Positions 3,238-26,187 of a stretch of 28,745 nucleotides of DNA are shown piece by piece (the first letter of the stretch is position 1; each line of letters opens with the position of its first letter). The notes under the pieces are model-generated. The model ran no database searches. It saw only the letters and a list, made by a program, of their open reading frames with translations, and was not told the origin of the DNA. The DNA comes from a virus. Both the position numbers and the translations under genes were made by a program. The DNA is taken from the UHGV virus genome UHGV-0139114, one strand, 5' to 3'.

Positions 3238-3509
3238 GTATTCGTATTGAAATTGGCGAACGTTATGTCGTTACCAGTGACAGCTTTCAGTTTATTCTCC
3301 ACGAGAAAAAGAGAGCGGAAAGCGGTAAAAACGCCGGTCAGGAATGGCTGGCGGTGGTTGGTTATTATCCGAAATTAAGCCAGCTCGTTTCCGGCCTGAT
3401 GCATCACGATATTCTGACCGGAAGCGCAAAGTCTTTTGCTGATTTAAACGCGCAGGTTGAGCAACTCAGCAGGCGTTGTTCAGAGGCTTTTGGCTCATAT
3501 GGCCGTTAA
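3234..3509 (+). CDS. Hypothetical early protein (91 aa)
   Basis: ORF with GGAG upstream, overlapping the neighbouring genes at both ends. Confidence 0.5.
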   Translation: MSIRIEIGERYVVTSDSFQFILHEKKRAESGKNAGQEWLAVVGYYPKLSQLVSGLMHHDILTGSAKSFADLNAQVEQLSRRCSEAFGSYGR

Positions 3510-5805
3510 AGCCTCCGGGCGTTTTGTCCCTCCGTCAGCATTTGCTGCAGGCACCGGTAAGGCGTTTACCGGTGCTTATGCATGGAACGCGCCACGCGAG
3601 GCTGTCGGGCGCGAAAGACCCCTTACACGTGACGAGATGCGTCAGGTGCAAGGTGTTTTATCCACGATTAACCGCCTGCCTTACTTTTTGCGCTCGCTGT
3701 TTACTTCACGCTATGACTACATCCGGCGCAATAAAAGCCCGGTGCACGGGTTTTATTTCCTCACATCCACTTTTCAGCGTCGTTTATGGCCGCGCATTGA
3801 GCGTGTGAATCAGCGTCATGAAATGAACGCCGACGCGTCGTTGCTGTTTCTGGCAGAGCGCGACCAGTATGCGCGCCTGCCGGGGATGAATGACAAGGAG
3901 CTGAAAAAGTTTGCCGCCCGTATCTCATCACAGCTTTTCATGATGTATGAGGAACTCTGCGATGCCTGGGTGGATGCGCATGGCGAGAAAGAATCGCTGT
4001 TTACGGATGAGGCGCAGGCTCACCTCTATGGTCATGTTGCTGGCGCTGCACGTGCTTTCAATATTTCCCCGCTCTACTGGAAAAAATACCGTAAAGGACA
4101 GATGACCACGAGGCAGGCATATTCTGCCATTGCCCGTCTGTTTAACGATGAGTGGTGGACTCATCAGCTTAAAGGCCAGCGTATGCGCTGGCATGAGGCG
4201 TTACTGATTGCTGTCGGGGAGGTGAATAAAGACCGTTCTCCTTATGCCAGTAAACATGCCATTCGTGATGTGCGTGCACGCCGCCAGGCAAATCTGGAAT
4301 TTCTTAAATCGTGTGACCTTGAAAACAGGGAAACCGGCGAGCGCATCGACCTTATCAGTAAGGTGATGGGCAGTATTTCTAATCCTGAAATTCGCCGGAT
4401 GGAGCTGATGAACACCATTGCCGGTATTGAGCGTTACGCCGCCGCAGAGGGGGATGTGGGGATGTTTATCACGCTGACCACGCCGTCAAAGTATCACCCG
4501 ACACGTCAGGTCGGAAAAGGCGAAAGTAAAACCGTCCAGCTTAATCACGGCTGGAATGATGAGGCATTTAATCCAAAGGATGCGCAGCGTTATCTCTGCC
4601 GTATCTGGAGCCTGATGCGCACGGCATTCAAGGATAATGATTTACAGGTCTACGGTTTGCGTGTCGTCGAGCCACACCACGACGGAACGCCGCACTGGCA
4701 TATGATGCTTTTTTGTAATCCACGCCAGCGTAACCAGATTATCGAAATCATGCGTCGCTATGCGCTCAAAGAGGATGGTGACGAAAGAGGAGCCGCGCGA
4801 AACCGTTTTCAGGCAAAGCACCTTAACCGGGGCGGTGCTGCGGGATATATCGCGAAATACATTTCAAAAAATATCGACGGCTATGCACTGGATGGTCAGC
4901 TCGATAACGATACCGGTAAGCCGCTTAAAGATACTGCCGCGGCTGTTACCGCATGGGCGTCAACGTGGCGCATCCCGCAATTTAAAACGGTTGGCCTGCC
5001 GACAATGGGGGCTTACCGTGAACTACGCAAATTGCCTCGCGGCGTCAGTATTGCTGATGAGTTTGACGAACGCGTCGAGGCTGCTCGCGCTGCCGCAGAC
5101 AGTGGTGATTTTGCGTTGTATATCAGCGCGCAGGGTGGGGCAAATGTCCCGCGCGATTGTCAGACTGTCAGGGTTGCCCGTAGCCCGTCGGATGACGTCA
5201 ACGAGTACGAGGAAGAAGTCGAGAGAGTGGTCGGCATTTACGCGCCGCATCTCGGCGCGCGTCATATTCATATCACCAGAACCACGGACTGGCGCATTGT
5301 TCCGAAATTTCCGGTCGTTGAGCCTTTGACTTTAAAAAGCGGCATCGCCGCGCCTCGGAGTCCTGTCAATAACTGTGGAAAGCTCACCGGTGGTGATACT
5401 TCGTTACCGGCTCCCACACCTTCTGAGCACGCCGCAGCCCTGCTTAATCTGGTTGATGACGGTGTTATCGAATGGAATGACCCGGAGGTCGTGAGGGCGC
5501 TCAGGGGCGCATTAAAACACGGCCTGAGAACACCAAACCGTCAGCAAAGAAACGGAAGCCCGTTAAAAGCGCATGAAATAGCGCCATCGGCCAGGCTGAC
5601 CCGGTTGGAGCGTATGCAAATTACCCGTATCCGTGTTGACCTTGCTCAGAACGGCATCTGGCCTCAGCGATGGGAACTTGAGGCGCTGGCGCGTGGCGCG
5701 ACCGTAAATTATGACGGGAAAAAATTCACGTATCCGGTCACTGATGAGTGGCCGGGATTCTCAACAGTAATGGAGTGGACATCATGGCAAAAATTCACGA
5801 GGTAA
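3499..5805 (+). CDS. A: Rolling-circle replication initiator endonuclease, P2 gpA-like (start at ATG 3499; track start 3457 is TTG)
   Basis: From the 3499 ATG the protein begins MAVKASGRFVPPSAF, which I recall as the P2 gpA N-terminus; contains HWHMMLF and YIAKYISKNIDGY, typical of rolling-circle initiators with the active-site tyrosines. Confidence 0.9.
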   Translation: MAVKASGRFVPPSAFAAGTGKAFTGAYAWNAPREAVGRERPLTRDEMRQVQGVLSTINRLPYFLRSLFTSRYDYIRRNKSPVHGFYFLTSTFQRRLWPRIERVNQRHEMNADASLLFLAERDQYARLPGMNDKELKKFAARISSQLFMMYEELCDAWVDAHGEKESLFTDEAQAHLYGHVAGAARAFNISPLYWKKYRKGQMTTRQAYSAIARLFNDEWWTHQLKGQRMRWHEALLIAVGEVNKDRSPYASKHAIRDVRARRQANLEFLKSCDLENRETGERIDLISKVMGSISNPEIRRMELMNTIAGIERYAAAEGDVGMFITLTTPSKYHPTRQVGKGESKTVQLNHGWNDEAFNPKDAQRYLCRIWSLMRTAFKDNDLQVYGLRVVEPHHDGTPHWHMMLFCNPRQRNQIIEIMRRYALKEDGDERGAARNRFQAKHLNRGGAAGYIAKYISKNIDGYALDGQLDNDTGKPLKDTAAAVTAWASTWRIPQFKTVGLPTMGAYRELRKLPRGVSIADEFDERVEAARAAADSGDFALYISAQGGANVPRDCQTVRVARSPSDDVNEYEEEVERVVGIYAPHLGARHIHITRTTDWRIVPKFPVVEPLTLKSGIAAPRSPVNNCGKLTGGDTSLPAPTPSEHAAALLNLVDDGVIEWNDPEVVRALRGALKHGLRTPNRQQRNGSPLKAHEIAPSARLTRLERMQITRIRVDLAQNGIWPQRWELEALARGATVNYDGKKFTYPVTDEWPGFSTVMEWTSWQKFTR

Positions 5806-6236
5806 AGCTGCACGCAAAATATTTCGACCTTGTGCTGGAAGGAAAGAAACGTGCAGAGTTTCGGAAAAATGACCGTAATTATGAGCGCGGGGACACGCTG
5901 ATTTTGCATGAATGGGTGCAGGGTGTGTTTACGGGGCGAAAGGTTGAAGCCCGGATAACAGATGTTACTGACCTGTCAGACTGGCTGGAAGATTATGTCT
6001 TGCTAAGTATTGAGCTGCTTAATACAAGCGCATATGAGATTGTGAACTGGAAAGAACTTAGTGAGCGTGGTCTGGTATTCAGAATTAATCATGAAATTAT
6101 GCATCAGCTCGGCCTTGCTGTTATGTATGAACCAGAGACGGGGATGTCTGGCGGGGCAATGGTTACCACGGATGGAGCATGGAACTATTCAGATGAACAG
6201 ATTGAGAGTGCAAAGCAAAACGGGTGGCTTGGATAA
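5784..6236 (+). CDS. DUF3850-like (ASCH/PUA-like fold) protein with a C-terminal extension (150 aa from ATG 5784)
   Basis: N-terminal 60 aa (KIHEVKLHAKYFDLVLEGKKRAEFRKNDRNYERGDTL) look like DUF3850 from memory; track start 5748 is GTG, and ATG 5784 has GGAG 9 nt upstream. Confidence 0.55.
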   Translation: MAKIHEVKLHAKYFDLVLEGKKRAEFRKNDRNYERGDTLILHEWVQGVFTGRKVEARITDVTDLSDWLEDYVLLSIELLNTSAYEIVNWKELSERGLVFRINHEIMHQLGLAVMYEPETGMSGGAMVTTDGAWNYSDEQIESAKQNGWLG

Positions 6237-6515: not shown

Positions 6516-7457
6516 TTAAGTTAATTTTAATGAATGGTACTCTATCGAGCTGATTGTAGATGCGATATATTTACGATCATTTACAGAGAGTATTGCCGCT
6601 AGTAGACGACATACCAGAGCCTGCATTTGTAGCAATATATCGCTACCATATTGACAATCATTGATACTAGAGAAACCAAGCGGTTGCCCATTAAAAATGG
6701 CTTCATGAAAATTATCATTGCGTATAACTGAAACATTACATTCATCTGTTGCCCATGACGGGATTTTTACACCGTAATTTTCGCACATCCAATATACTCT
6801 ATTTTGATGAGATGGTTTTTTCTCTTTAATGACTTTATCCCTTTCATCCCATGCTATAGCAAAACAGCAATCAAGAGCCATATAAAGATACTGGAATTTC
6901 TCAAAGGAAAGGTATAGTGGGTTATGTGATAGGAATAGGGAGTGTATCACCGCAGCTATTCTTTTAATGGAGCGATCATCTTTTTGTTTGTCTTTTATAT
7001 AGTTAAGTGCTAGCTCTATTACTTCTTTTTCAGAGCATCCAACGAGAATAAAGTCAGTTAACTTAGTGGGCTTGATAGTGGTTGCATCAAGAAAACCAGC
7101 GTCAGTGGTTGTCAATCTTATACCCTTGAAAAAAGAGAGGCACCACACAACAAAGTTGAGAGTTTCTAACGAGGATGTGTTTTTTAATTTTAGTGTGTGC
7201 GTTTTGGGCATGCCGAATACTCGGTAACTATAAGGCATTGTGCATGTGTCACCATTAAGGTTATATACCTTTCGATTCCCAGGGTATATCCAACCATTAA
7301 CAACGTTTTTATCATTGTTAATACGTTCCACTTTCTCAATAAGACCGGGTAAAGTACGCAAAGAAAATTGTTCAGTCTCAATGTTAACTTCTACTGGATA
7401 GTATCCAAACTCCGAAATAATCTCATTTGGTTGCTGTTCATCAACTTCACCTTGCAT
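6516..7457 (-). CDS. Orphan 313-aa protein with an RNxxxH (HEPN-like) motif; candidate abortive-infection / defence nuclease
   Basis: Long ORF on the opposite strand to the surrounding phage genes in an AT-rich segment; GGAG 7 nt upstream of ATG 7457; motif RNDNFH at residues 246-251 (nt 6705-6722). Not a P2 gene that I recognise. Confidence 0.6.
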   Translation of the reverse strand: MQGEVDEQQPNEIISEFGYYPVEVNIETEQFSLRTLPGLIEKVERINNDKNVVNGWIYPGNRKVYNLNGDTCTMPYSYRVFGMPKTHTLKLKNTSSLETLNFVVWCLSFFKGIRLTTTDAGFLDATTIKPTKLTDFILVGCSEKEVIELALNYIKDKQKDDRSIKRIAAVIHSLFLSHNPLYLSFEKFQYLYMALDCCFAIAWDERDKVIKEKKPSHQNRVYWMCENYGVKIPSWATDECNVSVIRNDNFHEAIFNGQPLGFSSINDCQYGSDILLQMQALVCRLLAAILSVNDRKYIASTISSIEYHSLKLT

Positions 7458-22301: not shown

Positions 22302-22829
22302 ATGCAACACTTAAAAAACATTATTGCGGGAAATCCAAAAACGGTTGAGCAATATAAACTGACAAAGAATTTTGATGTTATCTGGTTATGGTCCGAAGAG
22401 GGAAAAAACTGGTATGAGGAAGTAAGTAATTTTCAGGAAGACACGATAAAGATTGTTTACGACGAGCATAATATTATTGTCGCCATCACCAAAGATGCCT
22501 CCACGCTTAACCCTGAAGGTTTTAGCGTTGTCGAGGTTCCTGATATTACCGCCAACCGACGTGCTGATGACTCAGGTAAATGGATGTTTAAGGATGGTGC
22601 TGTGATTAAGCGGATTTATACGGCAGACGAACAGCTGCAACTGGCAGAATCACAAAAGGCCGCGTTACTTTCCGAAACCGAATCCGTGATTTTGCCGCTG
22701 GAGCGCGCTGTCAGGCTGAATATGGCAACAGATGAGGAGCGCAGTCGACTGGAAGCATGGGAACGCTACAGCGTTCTGGTCAGTCGTGTGGATACTGCAA
22801 ATCCTGAATGGCCGGAAATGCCACAATAA
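22302..22829 (+). CDS. G: Tail fibre assembly chaperone G
   Basis: 175 aa immediately after H. Confidence 0.8.
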
Positions 22830-23019
22830 GTGATATGATCTCTTGTGTGAATTAACATAGCTATAGTACAGAGTAAAACCTAATCGGACAGTCCGCTCTG
22901 TGCCATTACCGGACATACTGAGCAGAAGGCTAAAAGAACGCTTTCAGGACATATAGCAAGGGAGCAGGGATGATAGAATTAACCCAGTATATTTAATGTT
23001 TCAATCATGATAGTTCCTG

Positions 23020-23047
23020 AATTAAAGGGGGGTATCCCCCTTTAATT
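23020..23047. terminator. Bidirectional hairpin terminator between convergent G and the 92-aa gene
   Basis: Perfect 12-bp stem AATTAAAGGGGG / CCCCCTTTAATT with loop GTAT; overlaps the stop codon of the minus-strand gene. Confidence 0.55.
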
Positions 23048-23324
23048 ACTTGTACCACTCAGTCTGAATTTGGTTACTAACTTCATCTGGGAGATTGTAC
23101 CAATAAGCTGAGTTATTGGTTGCGTCTACAACAATAAGCTTATCATCACTATCCATAACCGCCCTCACAATTTTGGCTGCATCCTCGGCAGAGTAACTAC
23201 AGTTAACATACCAGTTCGATTCAGTTGTTAAAGCCCAATTTCCTAAAGATTTAATCGCATTATACACAGCCGCATAATCTTTCGTTTTAATGAGGTCGTA
23301 AGTAATAAATAAATTATTGGCCAT
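23046..23324 (-). CDS. Hypothetical 92-aa protein (cargo)
   Basis: ORF with GGGAG 8 nt upstream of the ATG, in an AT-rich island; no family recognised. Confidence 0.55.
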   Translation of the reverse strand: MANNLFITYDLIKTKDYAAVYNAIKSLGNWALTTESNWYVNCSYSAEDAAKIVRAVMDSDDKLIVVDATNNSAYWYNLPDEVSNQIQTEWYK

Positions 23325-23343
23325 AAATCATCTCCCAAAGGGC

Positions 23344-23370
23344 AAAGAAAAAAGCGCCTAGAAAGGCGCT
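23344..23370 (-). terminator. Rho-independent terminator between the DUF3606 gene and the 92-aa gene
   Basis: Stem AGCGCCT / AGGCGCT (23353-23359, 23364-23370), loop AGAA; on the minus strand it is followed by TTTTTTCTTT. Confidence 0.6.
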
Positions 23371-23376
23371 CATATA

Positions 23377-23595
23377 TTAATGGTCTTTAAGCCATGCCTG
23401 TACTTTCTTAGCCGAATGACCTACAGCCTGTACGGCTTGAACAAGTTTGGCCTCGCTAACTCCAAACTTTTCAGCCCAATCACGTCTTTCGTAATCCTGT
23501 TTGATACTTATTAAATCATTGTCAGGGGTACCGATTTTGGTCTTATCATCAGCCATTTTACTGATTCCTCGTGATACAGGCTTATACCTGCCCAT
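23377..23595 (-). CDS. DUF3606-like small protein (alternative start at ATG 23556 giving 59 aa)
   Basis: Pattern DYERRDWAEKFGVSEAKLVQAVQAVGHS resembles DUF3606 family members as I remember them; both candidate starts have an SD. Confidence 0.55.
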   Translation of the reverse strand: MGRYKPVSRGISKMADDKTKIGTPDNDLISIKQDYERRDWAEKFGVSEAKLVQAVQAVGHSAKKVQAWLKDH

Positions 23596-24043
23596 TAGTT
23601 ATATGGCTCCCGTGCCGCTTCGTAAACGTTCAATAATCAAACAATTGACACTGATCATAAAACCAGTTAAAGGATTTGACTCTACCTTGGATATATGATG
23701 CCACCCCCTTTATATTGTTGTCGGTAACTCACAGGCATTGAACTCATGCTGGTGAGTGAAAGGCCACATAAACGCCCAATATTTAAACTGCCCTCAGCAG
23801 CGTTCGCGGAGCAATATACAGGCTTCGTATTCAATCCTTGCCCTACGAGAAACCCTAGCCGCAACCTCGTTTTCAAGTGTCAGTAAGTTCTTTGTCAGAC
23901 CTCATACAGTTTTAAGCTGGGTGAGGTGCATGGGGGAAGTTGAAGCCTTAACTGTTGAGGTAAATCGAACCATAAGTGTGCAATTTTTCAAGCCCGGCGC
24001 TATTTTAGTCTTGAAAACAATTAGTACGCCCCAAGGACAACTC

Positions 24044-24736
24044 ATGATCGAATTTATCGCAGAGCATATAAACACAGTAAGCACACTTATCTCCGCTTTG
24101 GCTGCATTGCTAACAGCAGTTGCTACATTTTTCTTGTGGAGAGTAACAAGGCTATTAGCAGACGAGACAAAAAGGATGGTTGACGCATCAGTTCAACCTC
24201 ACGTCGTTGTGACTCTTGAACCAAATTCTTGGGCTGCTTTTTATTTTGATATCAATATTGCTAATACCGGAAATGCCCCAGCCTATGATATTGAAATCGG
24301 ATTTAATCCCCCACTGGTAAATGCAGAACATAGAAAAAATAAAGGTATACCATTTAGCAAGGTTAGCGTATTGAAAAACGGCCATTCGCTCAACAGCAGT
24401 CTTTGTAAGTATGAACAGATTAAAGATCAAGTTTATACTGTTAGTATTAGTTGGTCTAAACAGCCGGGCTCAACTGAAAGAGAGCGGAATGAGTATTCTT
24501 ATGATATGGCTTCTTTCGAGGGGGTTAGCTACTTAGGTGCAAGGAGTCCAATGACACAGATAGCCGAGCAGGTGAAAAAGATTAGAGAAGACTGGAGGCC
24601 GATTTCCCAGGGAAGCAAAAAAATTAAAACAGACAACTATAATTCAAGTGACAGAGCCGAGGAACAACGAGCACGTGAAGAGTGGTATCAGACCACTGCA
24701 AAGAAATGGGATAAAGAAAAGCAAAAAGATAACTAA
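24044..24736 (+). CDS. Membrane-anchored protein of about 230 aa (cargo); candidate superinfection-exclusion / abortive-infection protein. Alternative start at ATG 23930.
   Basis: AAGGA 6 nt upstream of ATG 24044; predicted single N-terminal transmembrane helix TVSTLISALAALLTAVATFFLW, then a beta-rich domain and a K/E-rich tail; AT-rich; occupies the Z/fun locus. Confidence 0.55.
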   Translation: MIEFIAEHINTVSTLISALAALLTAVATFFLWRVTRLLADETKRMVDASVQPHVVVTLEPNSWAAFYFDINIANTGNAPAYDIEIGFNPPLVNAEHRKNKGIPFSKVSVLKNGHSLNSSLCKYEQIKDQVYTVSISWSKQPGSTERERNEYSYDMASFEGVSYLGARSPMTQIAEQVKKIREDWRPISQGSKKIKTDNYNSSDRAEEQRAREEWYQTTAKKWDKEKQKDN

Positions 24737-24871
24737 TACAATTGACCTGCTCCCCATAAATTAGCATACCACAATCTCAGGTCCGCTCTTCGCTCAAAAC
24801 AGGCTGTCAGATTTGACAGAATTTTGGTTACGTAATTTATCAGTTGGAAAATGAGTGAGTACAAATCAGGA

Positions 24872-24900
24872 CAGGCGGGCGAATAGCCTGCCTTTTCTTT
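24872..24900 (+). terminator. Possible weak terminator after the cargo gene, before the FI promoter region
   Basis: Short stem CAGGC / GCCTG with a 9-nt loop followed by CCTTTTCTTT. Confidence 0.3.
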
Positions 24901-24996: not shown

Positions 24997-26187
24997 ATGA
25001 GTGACTATCATCATGGCGTGCAGGTGCTGGAGATTAACGACGGCACCCGCGTCATTTCCACTGTATCCACGGCCATTGTCGGCATGGTCTGCACGGCCAG
25101 CGATGCGGATGCGGAAACCTTCCCCCTCAATAAACCGGTGCTGATTACCAATGTGCAGAGCGCAATTGCAAAGGCCGGTAAAAAAGGCACGCTGGCGGCA
25201 TCGTTGCAGGCCATCGCCGACCAGTCAAAACCGGTCACCGTTGTCGTGCGTGTGGAAGACGGCACCGGCGACGACGAGGAAACGAAACTCGCGCAGACCG
25301 TTTCCAATATCATCGGCACCACCGACGAAAATGGTCAGTACACCGGACTGAAAGCCCTGCTGGCGGCGGAGTCGGTAACCGGTGTTAAACCGCGTATTCT
25401 CGGTGTGCCGGGACTGGACACCAAAGAGGTGGCTGTTGCACTGGCATCAGTCTGTCAGAAGCTGCGCGCTTTCGGGTATATCAGCGCATGGGACTGTAAA
25501 ACCATTTCCGAGGTGAAAGCCTACCGTCAGAATTTCAGCCAGCGTGAGCTGATGGTCATCTGGCCGGATTTCCTCGCATGGGATACGGTCAGCAGTACCA
25601 CCGCCACCGCGTATGCCACCGCCCGTGCGCTGGGTCTGCGCGCTAAAATCGACCAGGAGCAGGGCTGGCATAAAACGCTGTCCAATGTCGGGGTGAACGG
25701 TGTTACCGGCATCAGCGCATCCGTCTTCTGGGATTTGCAGGAGTCCGGCACCGATGCTGACCTGCTTAACGAGTCAGGCGTCACTACGCTGATTCGCCGC
25801 GACGGTTTCCGCTTCTGGGGTAACCGTACCTGCTCTGATGACCCGCTGTTCCTCTTTGAAAACTACACCCGCACCGCGCAGGTACTGGCTGACACGATGG
25901 CTGAGGCGCACATGTGGGCGGTGGACAAGCCCATCACCGCAACGCTGATTCGCGACATCGTTGACGGCATCAATGCCAAATTCCGTGAGCTGAAAACAAA
26001 CGGCTATATCGTGGATGCGACCTGCTGGTTCAGCGAAGAATCCAACGATGCGGAAACCCTCAAGGCCGGAAAACTGTATATCGACTACGACTATACACCG
26101 GTGCCTCCTCTTGAAAACCTGACCCTGCGCCAGCGTATTACCGATAAATACCTGGCAAATCTGGTCACCTCGGTTAACAGCAATTAA
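24997..26187 (+). CDS. FI: Tail sheath protein FI
   Basis: 396 aa, begins MSDYHHGVQVLEINDGTRVIS; position before the tube gene. Confidence 0.9.
   Translation: MSDYHHGVQVLEINDGTRVISTVSTAIVGMVCTASDADAETFPLNKPVLITNVQSAIAKAGKKGTLAASLQAIADQSKPVTVVVRVEDGTGDDEETKLAQTVSNIIGTTDENGQYTGLKALLAAESVTGVKPRILGVPGLDTKEVAVALASVCQKLRAFGYISAWDCKTISEVKAYRQNFSQRELMVIWPDFLAWDTVSSTTATAYATARALGLRAKIDQEQGWHKTLSNVGVNGVTGISASVFWDLQESGTDADLLNESGVTTLIRRDGFRFWGNRTCSDDPLFLFENYTRTAQVLADTMAEAHMWAVDKPITATLIRDIVDGINAKFRELKTNGYIVDATCWFSEESNDAETLKAGKLYIDYDYTPVPPLENLTLRQRITDKYLANLVTSVNSN

Follow-up and report, generated by a model that had tools for sequence, protein, structure and literature searches.

An internal and probably leaky terminator between a DUF3606 gene and an orphan Cas2/VapD-like gene in the Z/fun hotspot of a P2-like Escherichia coli prophage

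The window, a stretch of 28,745 nucleotides (UHGV virus genome UHGV-0139114), is a P2-like prophage of E. coli and matches the E. coli KC-Dl-1 chromosome with 100% identity. Two small genes, encoding a DUF3606 protein of 59 aa and a protein of 92 aa, lie in tandem on its minus strand between the tail genes G and FI (Table 1). This insert site is known from P2 as its classical Z/fun hotspot for accessory genes. P2, Wphi, HQ103 and further P2-like phages matched only the flanks of the cassette, and the GC content amounts to 39–41% across the cassette and insert versus 55–60% in FI. With the position between G and FI, these flank-only matches, the deviant GC content, the terminators found and a predicted promoter, the two genes represent an accessory (moron) transcription unit of ~640 bp running against the late genes. 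A preliminary description of the locus had assumed an island or cargo setting, which was borne out by the G/FI flanks and the flank-only matches. The known cargo of the Z/fun hotspot includes anti-phage genes, for example fun(Z).

The complete 2.2-kb insert was recovered with ~96% identity from 99 complete E. coli genomes, from the infectious phage R18C and from the P2-EC53 ‘Z-region’ record (GenBank AJ512682). The cassette is present in ~2% of complete E. coli genomes, and an identical one is already public as hypothetical genes; both small ORFs (ORF23/24) are given as function unknown in the R18C paper (PMC6823313). New here are the assignment of a fold, the spread of the family over mobile elements, an internal terminator that is conserved, and partners that are exchanged in modular fashion. 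The unit resembles other Z/fun morons (P2 fun(Z), the P2-EC53 Z-region and R18C ORF23/24) in its G–FI position, low GC content, anti-late orientation, own predicted promoter and flanking terminator, and it is likewise missing from most P2-like phages. It differs from them by the internal terminator between its two genes, and from the fun(Z)-type morons also in that no phenotype such as T5 exclusion is known for this cassette.

Table 1. Position of the two-gene unit, its predicted signals and its neighbours in the window.
Feature	Position	Strand	Remarks
Tail-fibre assembly gene G	22302–22829		Caudo_TAP
G/C hairpin closing the unit	23024–23043	either	AAAGGGGGAUACCCCCCUUU; terminator-like score on both strands
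Orphan Cas2/VapD-like protein gene, 92 aa	23046–23324	-	PHROG 1090
SD of the 92-aa gene	23331–23336	-	GGGAGA, 6 nt before ATG
Gap between the two genes	23325–23376		52 nt
Internal intrinsic terminator (predicted)	23342–23371	-	stem-loop GAGCGCCU-UUCU-AGGCGCUU 23352–23371, U-tract 23342–23351
DUF3606 gene, 59 aa	23377–23556	-	PF12244; phrog_10779; PGAP WP_001406733.1; stop TAA 23377–23379
SD of the DUF3606 gene	23566–23570	-	GAGGA
Small 5'-UTR stem-loop	23577–23590	-	CAGG-UAUAAG-CCUG, read from sequence; also in L004 and L084
Predicted promoter	23598–23626	-	-35 TTTACG 23621–23626, 17-nt spacer, -10 TATAAC 23598–23603
Inverted repeat	23650–23667	-	ACTGGT-N6-ATCAGT; homology with L004, L084, L087 and L088 begins here
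ORF1, divergent neighbouring cargo gene	23930–24736	+	268 aa by PGAP; phrog_11802
Tail-sheath gene FI	24997–26187		other flank of the cassette

ORF1 is a separate unit and lies outside the module common to non-P2 elements. In the P2-EC53 record it comprises 230 aa from about 24044 and is named ‘putative lysogenic conversion protein’. An N-terminal membrane helix is present in ORF1, for which no match was obtained in Pfam, NCBIfam or PADLOC. The 92-aa protein was also without any match in PADLOC-DB v2, and for DUF3606 only a chance-level match (PDC-M03B, E 0.027) was returned by this database. In E. coli E6474 (NZ_CP116981.1, H9), an IS4-like ISVsa5 transposase is inserted within the Z-region cassette. 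Left and right inverted repeats are annotated in AJ512682.1 (L001) at 3–115 and 1983–2073, which corresponds to approx. 22802–22914 and 24782–24872 of the window; they were not recovered there (0 pairs of at least 14 nt with a 9-nt seed). The prophage has its other P2 hotspot between gene A and portal gene Q, where genes for an ASCH/DUF3850 + DUF7415 protein (5748–6236, plus strand) and for a 313-aa protein (6516–7457, minus strand) without Pfam or PADLOC match were found.

The DUF3606 protein matched PF12244 with an E-value of 4.3e-18 and 65.3 bits (cut-off 24.3), covering all 54 profile positions, and phrog_10779 with an E-value of 4e-39. The earlier naming of this ORF as DUF3606-like was thereby upheld, but its proposed start at 23595 was corrected to 23556 because of the SD GAGGA, the PGAP call and the MADD/MSDD starts of the homologues. 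The ATG at 23595 has no SD and is located 3 nt past the predicted -10 element. The promoter had been missed by a consensus scan since its -10 element is without the final T. Its TTTACG/TATAAC hexamers occur at a spacing of 17–18 nt in the window and in loci L004, L084, L087, L088 and L101, with differing spacer sequences. Hexamers kept over divergent spacers support a promoter at this place, though the -10 element is atypical.

Further upstream, the relatives carry the inverted repeat in its perfect form, ACTGGT-N6-ACCAGT. As judged from the extent of the homology, the repeat marks the 5' edge of the module common to non-P2 elements, and it may be an operator. It is followed by CAATTG and the conserved TTTACG/TATAAC, which altogether looks like a regulated promoter usable before DUF3606 or the Cas2-like gene. 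In L004, a hydrophilic, repeat-containing protein of 82 aa (3282–3530, minus strand, with a weak Con-6-like match) is encoded divergently from the DUF3606 promoter region; this arrangement belongs to integrase-proximal elements. A similar Ser/Ala/Lys-rich ORF stands ahead of the Cas2-like gene in L123. The two genes of the window have near-identical opening codons, ATGGCTGATGAT (MADD) and ATGGCCAATAAT (MANN), at 23313–23324 and 23545–23556 on the minus strand. Near-identical gene starts are also found in Yersinia, behind a common 5' UTR. These matching starts may represent a recombination joint or a common translation-initiation region.

A ferredoxin fold of the Cas2/VapD type is assigned to the 92-aa protein. 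The protein matched phrog_1090, a family annotated as function unknown, with an E-value of 2.5e-25. This family of proteins with ~90–95 aa comprised 136 clusters at 90% identity in a word-indexed search and 484 clusters at 50% identity in an exhaustive search, and homologues were found in phages of Staphylococcus, Enterococcus, Clostridium and Mannheimia and on small plasmids. PHROG 1090 is a large family of phages, including temperate phages of Gram-negative and Gram-positive bacteria, satellite-like elements and small plasmids. The residue D10, at the position of the catalytic Asp of Cas2, is Asp or Glu in 56 of 69 members and D61 is kept in 68 of them. The ORF is intact and under purifying selection in ~100 E. 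coli genomes. A contig search with the single 92-aa protein as query gave three loci, and the broad family alignment (A1) was too diverse for pattern searching. With Foldseek against viral structure models only unnamed proteins were matched. The longer homologues contained no informative domain fusions; one with 1507 aa (P0175) was set aside as an apparently merged baseplate gene call.

Some databases label homologues ‘Cas2’ or ‘Cas system-associated’. The match of the 92-aa protein to Pfam Cas2 (PF09827) had 13.3 bits and an E-value of 0.097, which is below the gathering cut-off of 23.8, and such sub-threshold matches were obtained for 14 of 69 family members (best member E 0.0015). The identity to Cas2 structures is 8–10%. 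Neither cas1 nor any other cas gene nor an array was present in the window or in any genomic context examined. A function as CRISPR Cas2 was ruled out by the sub-cut-off score and the missing cas neighbours. The top PDB match of the family profile was BPSL1038 from Burkholderia pseudomallei, a nuclease of the Cas2/VapD sub-family (PDB 7vxr; PMC10491678), but with an E-value of 0.043 this similarity falls short of clear significance. Its motif D11(X20)SST is not kept in the 92-aa protein, as only the last position (T34) aligns, to the conserved S36, and the Asp-to-Ser spacing in the family profile alignment is 25 instead of 20. BPSL1038 is moreover a conserved chromosomal gene, whereas the 92-aa gene is a phage or satellite cargo locus. 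No significant match was found to the VapD, VapX, VapY and VapW families. Judged from its fold, the Cas2-like protein would most likely act as a dimer in phage-host or phage-phage conflict, either as a nuclease or by binding nucleic acids.

The gap between the two genes contains a hairpin with an 8-bp stem, including five G-C pairs, and a 4-nt loop, a geometry within the limits for an intrinsic terminator (G+C-rich stem with 5–14 bp, loop with 3–8 nt). On its 3' side follows the tract UUUUCUUU (also given as TTTTCTTTG; RNA UUUUCUUUG), in which six Ts are unbroken when the last two stem bases are counted, as is typical of a terminator U-tract. The hairpin alone folds with -12.8 kcal/mol, and RNAfold gave -16.7 kcal/mol with z = -2.4 for the 61-nt gap region. 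The stem begins 5 nt past the DUF3606 stop codon, and 27 nt, containing the U-tract and the SD, separate it from the ATG of the 92-aa gene. The strong SDs reported for both genes (GAGGA for DUF3606 and GGGAGA for the 92-aa gene) and the GC-rich hairpin with its T-tract in the 52-bp gap were thus found as described, and the predicted anatomy is that of a canonical intrinsic terminator. A lone match of this kind is not rare, as nine terminator-like matches were counted in 5 kb compared with 4.5 ± 2.2 in shuffled sequences.

In minimum free energy folds of the -75 to -12 region, no helix competed for the 5' arm of the terminator and the hairpin stayed intact. The region has no Rfam family match, and the upstream ORF encodes a conserved 59-aa protein and not a leader peptide. 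With neither an antiterminator fold nor an Rfam family, it is not a classical attenuator or riboswitch. A REP/BIME element and an integron attC site were discarded because the hairpin is too short and the conserved boxes are missing. An Ogr-type late promoter was also rejected, as there is no TGT-N12-ACA site, and so was a CRP site, as the inverted repeat departs from the consensus. The G/C hairpin that closes the unit is terminator-like on both strands and could therefore also stop late H–G transcription from the other side. A similar hairpin, GGGGGG-CA-CCCCCC, is located 3' of the Cas2-like gene in L004.

The internal hairpin was compared among relatives with hairpin-centred segments, and the stop-to-stem gaps were taken from an explicit stem search. 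In 33 distinct sequences from enterobacteria, the stem AGCGCC/GGCGCU was found 22–32 nt ahead of the Cas2-like start codon ATG, with either DUF3606 or a Lys/Arg-rich (KRK) peptide encoded upstream. Standard pairs occupied 98.3% of the stem cells versus 32–64% when the partner column was slid. While the stem columns are at least 90% conserved, the loops are of at least 12 kinds with 4–7 nt. Seven single-sided changes were observed in the core G-C pairs, all of them from C to U, which retains a G·U pair in the sense RNA but leaves an A·C mismatch on the opposite strand. One stem change (L083) is disruptive and one sequence (L099) has a deletion. The sense-strand pair was thus kept in seven of eight substitutions (p ~0.035 under an equal-odds model that ignores relatedness). 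In L032, a different and fully compensated stem, ACCGCUC/GAGCGGU, is present behind a diverged DUF3606. It provides the only two double-sided changes, and elsewhere the stem is kept mostly by identity among related sequences. As covariation is limited, the argument rests mainly on the conservation pattern and the strand asymmetry. Given the conserved position and pairing of the stem in 33 distinct sequences, the hairpin is regarded as being under selection.

Since the same hairpin stands behind two unrelated upstream genes, it is linked to the Cas2-like gene. It is missing where this gene directly follows the promoter and in the distant loci L131 and L134, in which the KRK gene abuts. In 15 of 17 DUF3606-type sequences the stem lies 5 nt from the stop codon, and in 18 of 21 KRK-type sequences 3–12 nt; of the latter type, L131 and L134 (without terminator) and L092 (ORF call overlapping the stem) depart from this. 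Ordinary gene ends may often have a terminator this close to the stop codon. The U-tract ranges from 8/9 down to 4/9 U among the relatives and is poor in several KRK-type loci (CAUUUAAAG). At such loci with a weak U-tract, the stem-loop may be selected for a role other than termination, mainly RNA stability or processing.

In Enterobacterales, the Cas2-like gene is almost always found at the end of a prophage-like or satellite-like element, as the last gene ahead of an integrase in convergent orientation. Its upstream neighbour among 177 fetched loci was DUF3606 in 53 and the KRK-rich peptide in 34 cases. In the other 90, which include most of the distant family members, neither was present and no recurrent upstream partner was seen among the distinct sequences. 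In L087, L088 and L101, the Cas2-like gene stands directly behind the region that precedes DUF3606 in the window (ACTGGT-N6-ACCAGT, then TTTACG, 17–18 nt and TATAAC), with neither DUF3606 nor the hairpin. One promoter and 5'-UTR region is located before the Cas2-like gene in Yersinia enterocolitica (L028) and before a lone DUF3606 gene in Y. ruckeri (L185), which ends with a different terminator. No Cas2-like gene lies next to the DUF3606 homologues (51–77% identity) of Y. ruckeri and Burkholderiales; those of the Burkholderiales (51–61% identity) are found among small genes near Ku/LigD. As the partner is swapped or absent and each gene is found singly, both are interpreted as independent cargo that occurs alone or in tandem. 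By this comparison of sequences, DUF3606 and the Cas2-like gene are independent cargo joined in tandem and not a co-evolved or obligate pair.

The KRK family consists of Lys/Arg-rich peptides of 40–55 aa (MSKRKVVRSAITGQFV...HPKTTVTE...) and was without match in Pfam, PHROG and NCBIfam. As the alternative upstream neighbour of the Cas2-like gene, it was seen in L010 (3819–3944), L018, L020, L024, L076–L096, L131 and L134, with a gap of 10 nt in the distant loci. In L193 and L194 (E. coli AR_0128 and RM10410) and in L028–L032, the Cas2-like gene is located beside the integrase with a major capsid gene ~3 kb off. Instead of full prophages, these elements may be small satellites that encode a capsid.

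The preferred reading, to which a probability of roughly 0.6 is assigned, is one accessory transcription unit with an internal leaky, ribosome-modulated terminator, in which the Cas2-like protein is made by read-through and the two genes are not a pair. Transcription would start at the predicted promoter ~40 nt before DUF3606, and most transcripts would end at the intrinsic terminator 5 nt past its stop codon. A consensus scan detected no sigma-70-like site on the minus strand in the gap or in DUF3606. With a spacer of only 27 nt and no promoter-like site, transcripts of the Cas2-like gene must start upstream and pass the hairpin. Of the two routes of downstream expression suggested before, read-through is therefore supported by the short spacer, the missing sigma-70-like site and a promoter region that moves to the Cas2-like gene in relatives, while an internal promoter within the 52-bp gap is unlikely. 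The read-through fraction would then be the sole mRNA for the 92-aa protein, and its level would consequently be low and tied to transcription and translation of DUF3606.

The position of the terminator was compared with a study on tR2, in which termination was repressed when the hairpin was placed a few nt past the stop codon and termination efficiency neared its maximum of ~0.9 beyond ~30 bp (PMC4824070). In the window, too, a canonical hairpin and U-tract are predicted a few nt past a stop codon, with a second cistron following. Leader peptide and alternative antiterminator fold are absent. With the stem 5 nt past the stop, the 5' arm should be covered by a ribosome that finishes DUF3606, and the hairpin should thereby be kept from folding. 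By analogy to tR2, the extent of read-through would be set by how tightly translation trails transcription. The expected outcome is a high level of DUF3606 and a low level of the Cas2-like protein. The internal leaky terminator thus probably keeps expression of the Cas2-like gene low, with modulation by ribosomes.

It had also been suggested that the two genes might form a toxin-antitoxin or regulator-effector pair, with a toxic Cas2/VapD-like nuclease, DUF3606 as antitoxin or regulator and the terminator enforcing an excess of antitoxin. The fold class does include VapD toxins and the GhoS RNase (PMC11980593), and the VapXD, VapYD and VapWD type II systems share the order of a small upstream gene followed by a Cas2-superfamily protein (PMC11980593). 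A small gene running in the same direction stands upstream here, a small upstream gene from either of two families is present in 87 of the 177 fetched loci, and the terminator would yield a high upstream-to-downstream ratio. However, the partner is not conserved, being DUF3606, the unrelated KRK peptide or none at all (53/34/90). In L087, L088 and L101 and also in the Yersinia locus L028, the same promoter region is followed by the Cas2-like gene on its own, DUF3606 lacks a Cas2-like companion in Y. ruckeri and Burkholderiales, and PADLOC returned no match. The terminator also splits the two genes, unlike in typical type II pairs, including the Vap systems. Type II toxin-antitoxin pairs are typically translationally coupled. 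Obligate pairing is therefore not supported and a pair of this kind is considered improbable; as the Cas2/VapD-like fold keeps a toxin-like activity conceivable, the idea is weakened only.

Two further explanations were considered. The genes could be two independent single-gene morons in tandem with an efficient terminator between them, the 92-aa gene being silent in the lysogen or served by an unrecognised promoter within DUF3606 or a condition-specific factor. The hairpin and U-tract of the window do look strong, and in Yersinia (L028, L185) each gene occurs singly behind common promoter regions. A promoter within DUF3606, where no sigma-70-like site was found, would still face the hairpin, though, and the hairpin goes with the Cas2-like gene and not with DUF3606, whose terminator in Y. 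ruckeri differs. The intact ORF under purifying selection in ~100 E. coli genomes also argues against this explanation, which is judged unlikely, if less so than the pair. Alternatively, the stem-loop could mainly be no terminator but an intercistronic element for RNA stability or processing, or a recognition site of a protein. The strong conservation of the stem bases beside a U-tract of variable quality would fit this, as would GNRA-type loops (GAAA, GCAA) in some KRK-type loci. The variation of the loop length from 4 to 7 nt, by contrast, is ill-suited to a spaced protein-binding palindrome, the hairpin is missing whenever the gene directly follows the promoter, the copy in the window has a textbook U-tract and no family in Rfam matches, so that very little weight is given to this possibility. 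A single transcription unit with a leaky internal terminator is hence preferred.

These results narrow the experiments to be done on the locus: the 92-aa protein is an orphan with the Cas2/VapD fold, its expression is probably held down by an internal terminator that is under selection, and DUF3606 is a swappable neighbour and not a partner. The cassette is worth a modest experimental follow-up, and it will be unsurprising to the specialist. In a broader and distinctly speculative picture, to which only a small chance is given, the PHROG-1090 proteins would be widespread unrecognised effectors of temperate phages and satellites. They could be a Cas2 decoy that disturbs the acquisition of CRISPR spacers, or a nuclease that at low dose keeps out superinfecting phages, with a dose gated by a ribosome-sensitive terminator. 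If this were true, PHROG-1090 expression would rise when transcription-translation coupling or antitermination changes during infection. The case shows that hotspot cargo is built from small cassettes which are promoterless or bounded by terminators. Such an assembly of cassettes bears on guilt-by-association predictions, as these presume that neighbours act together.
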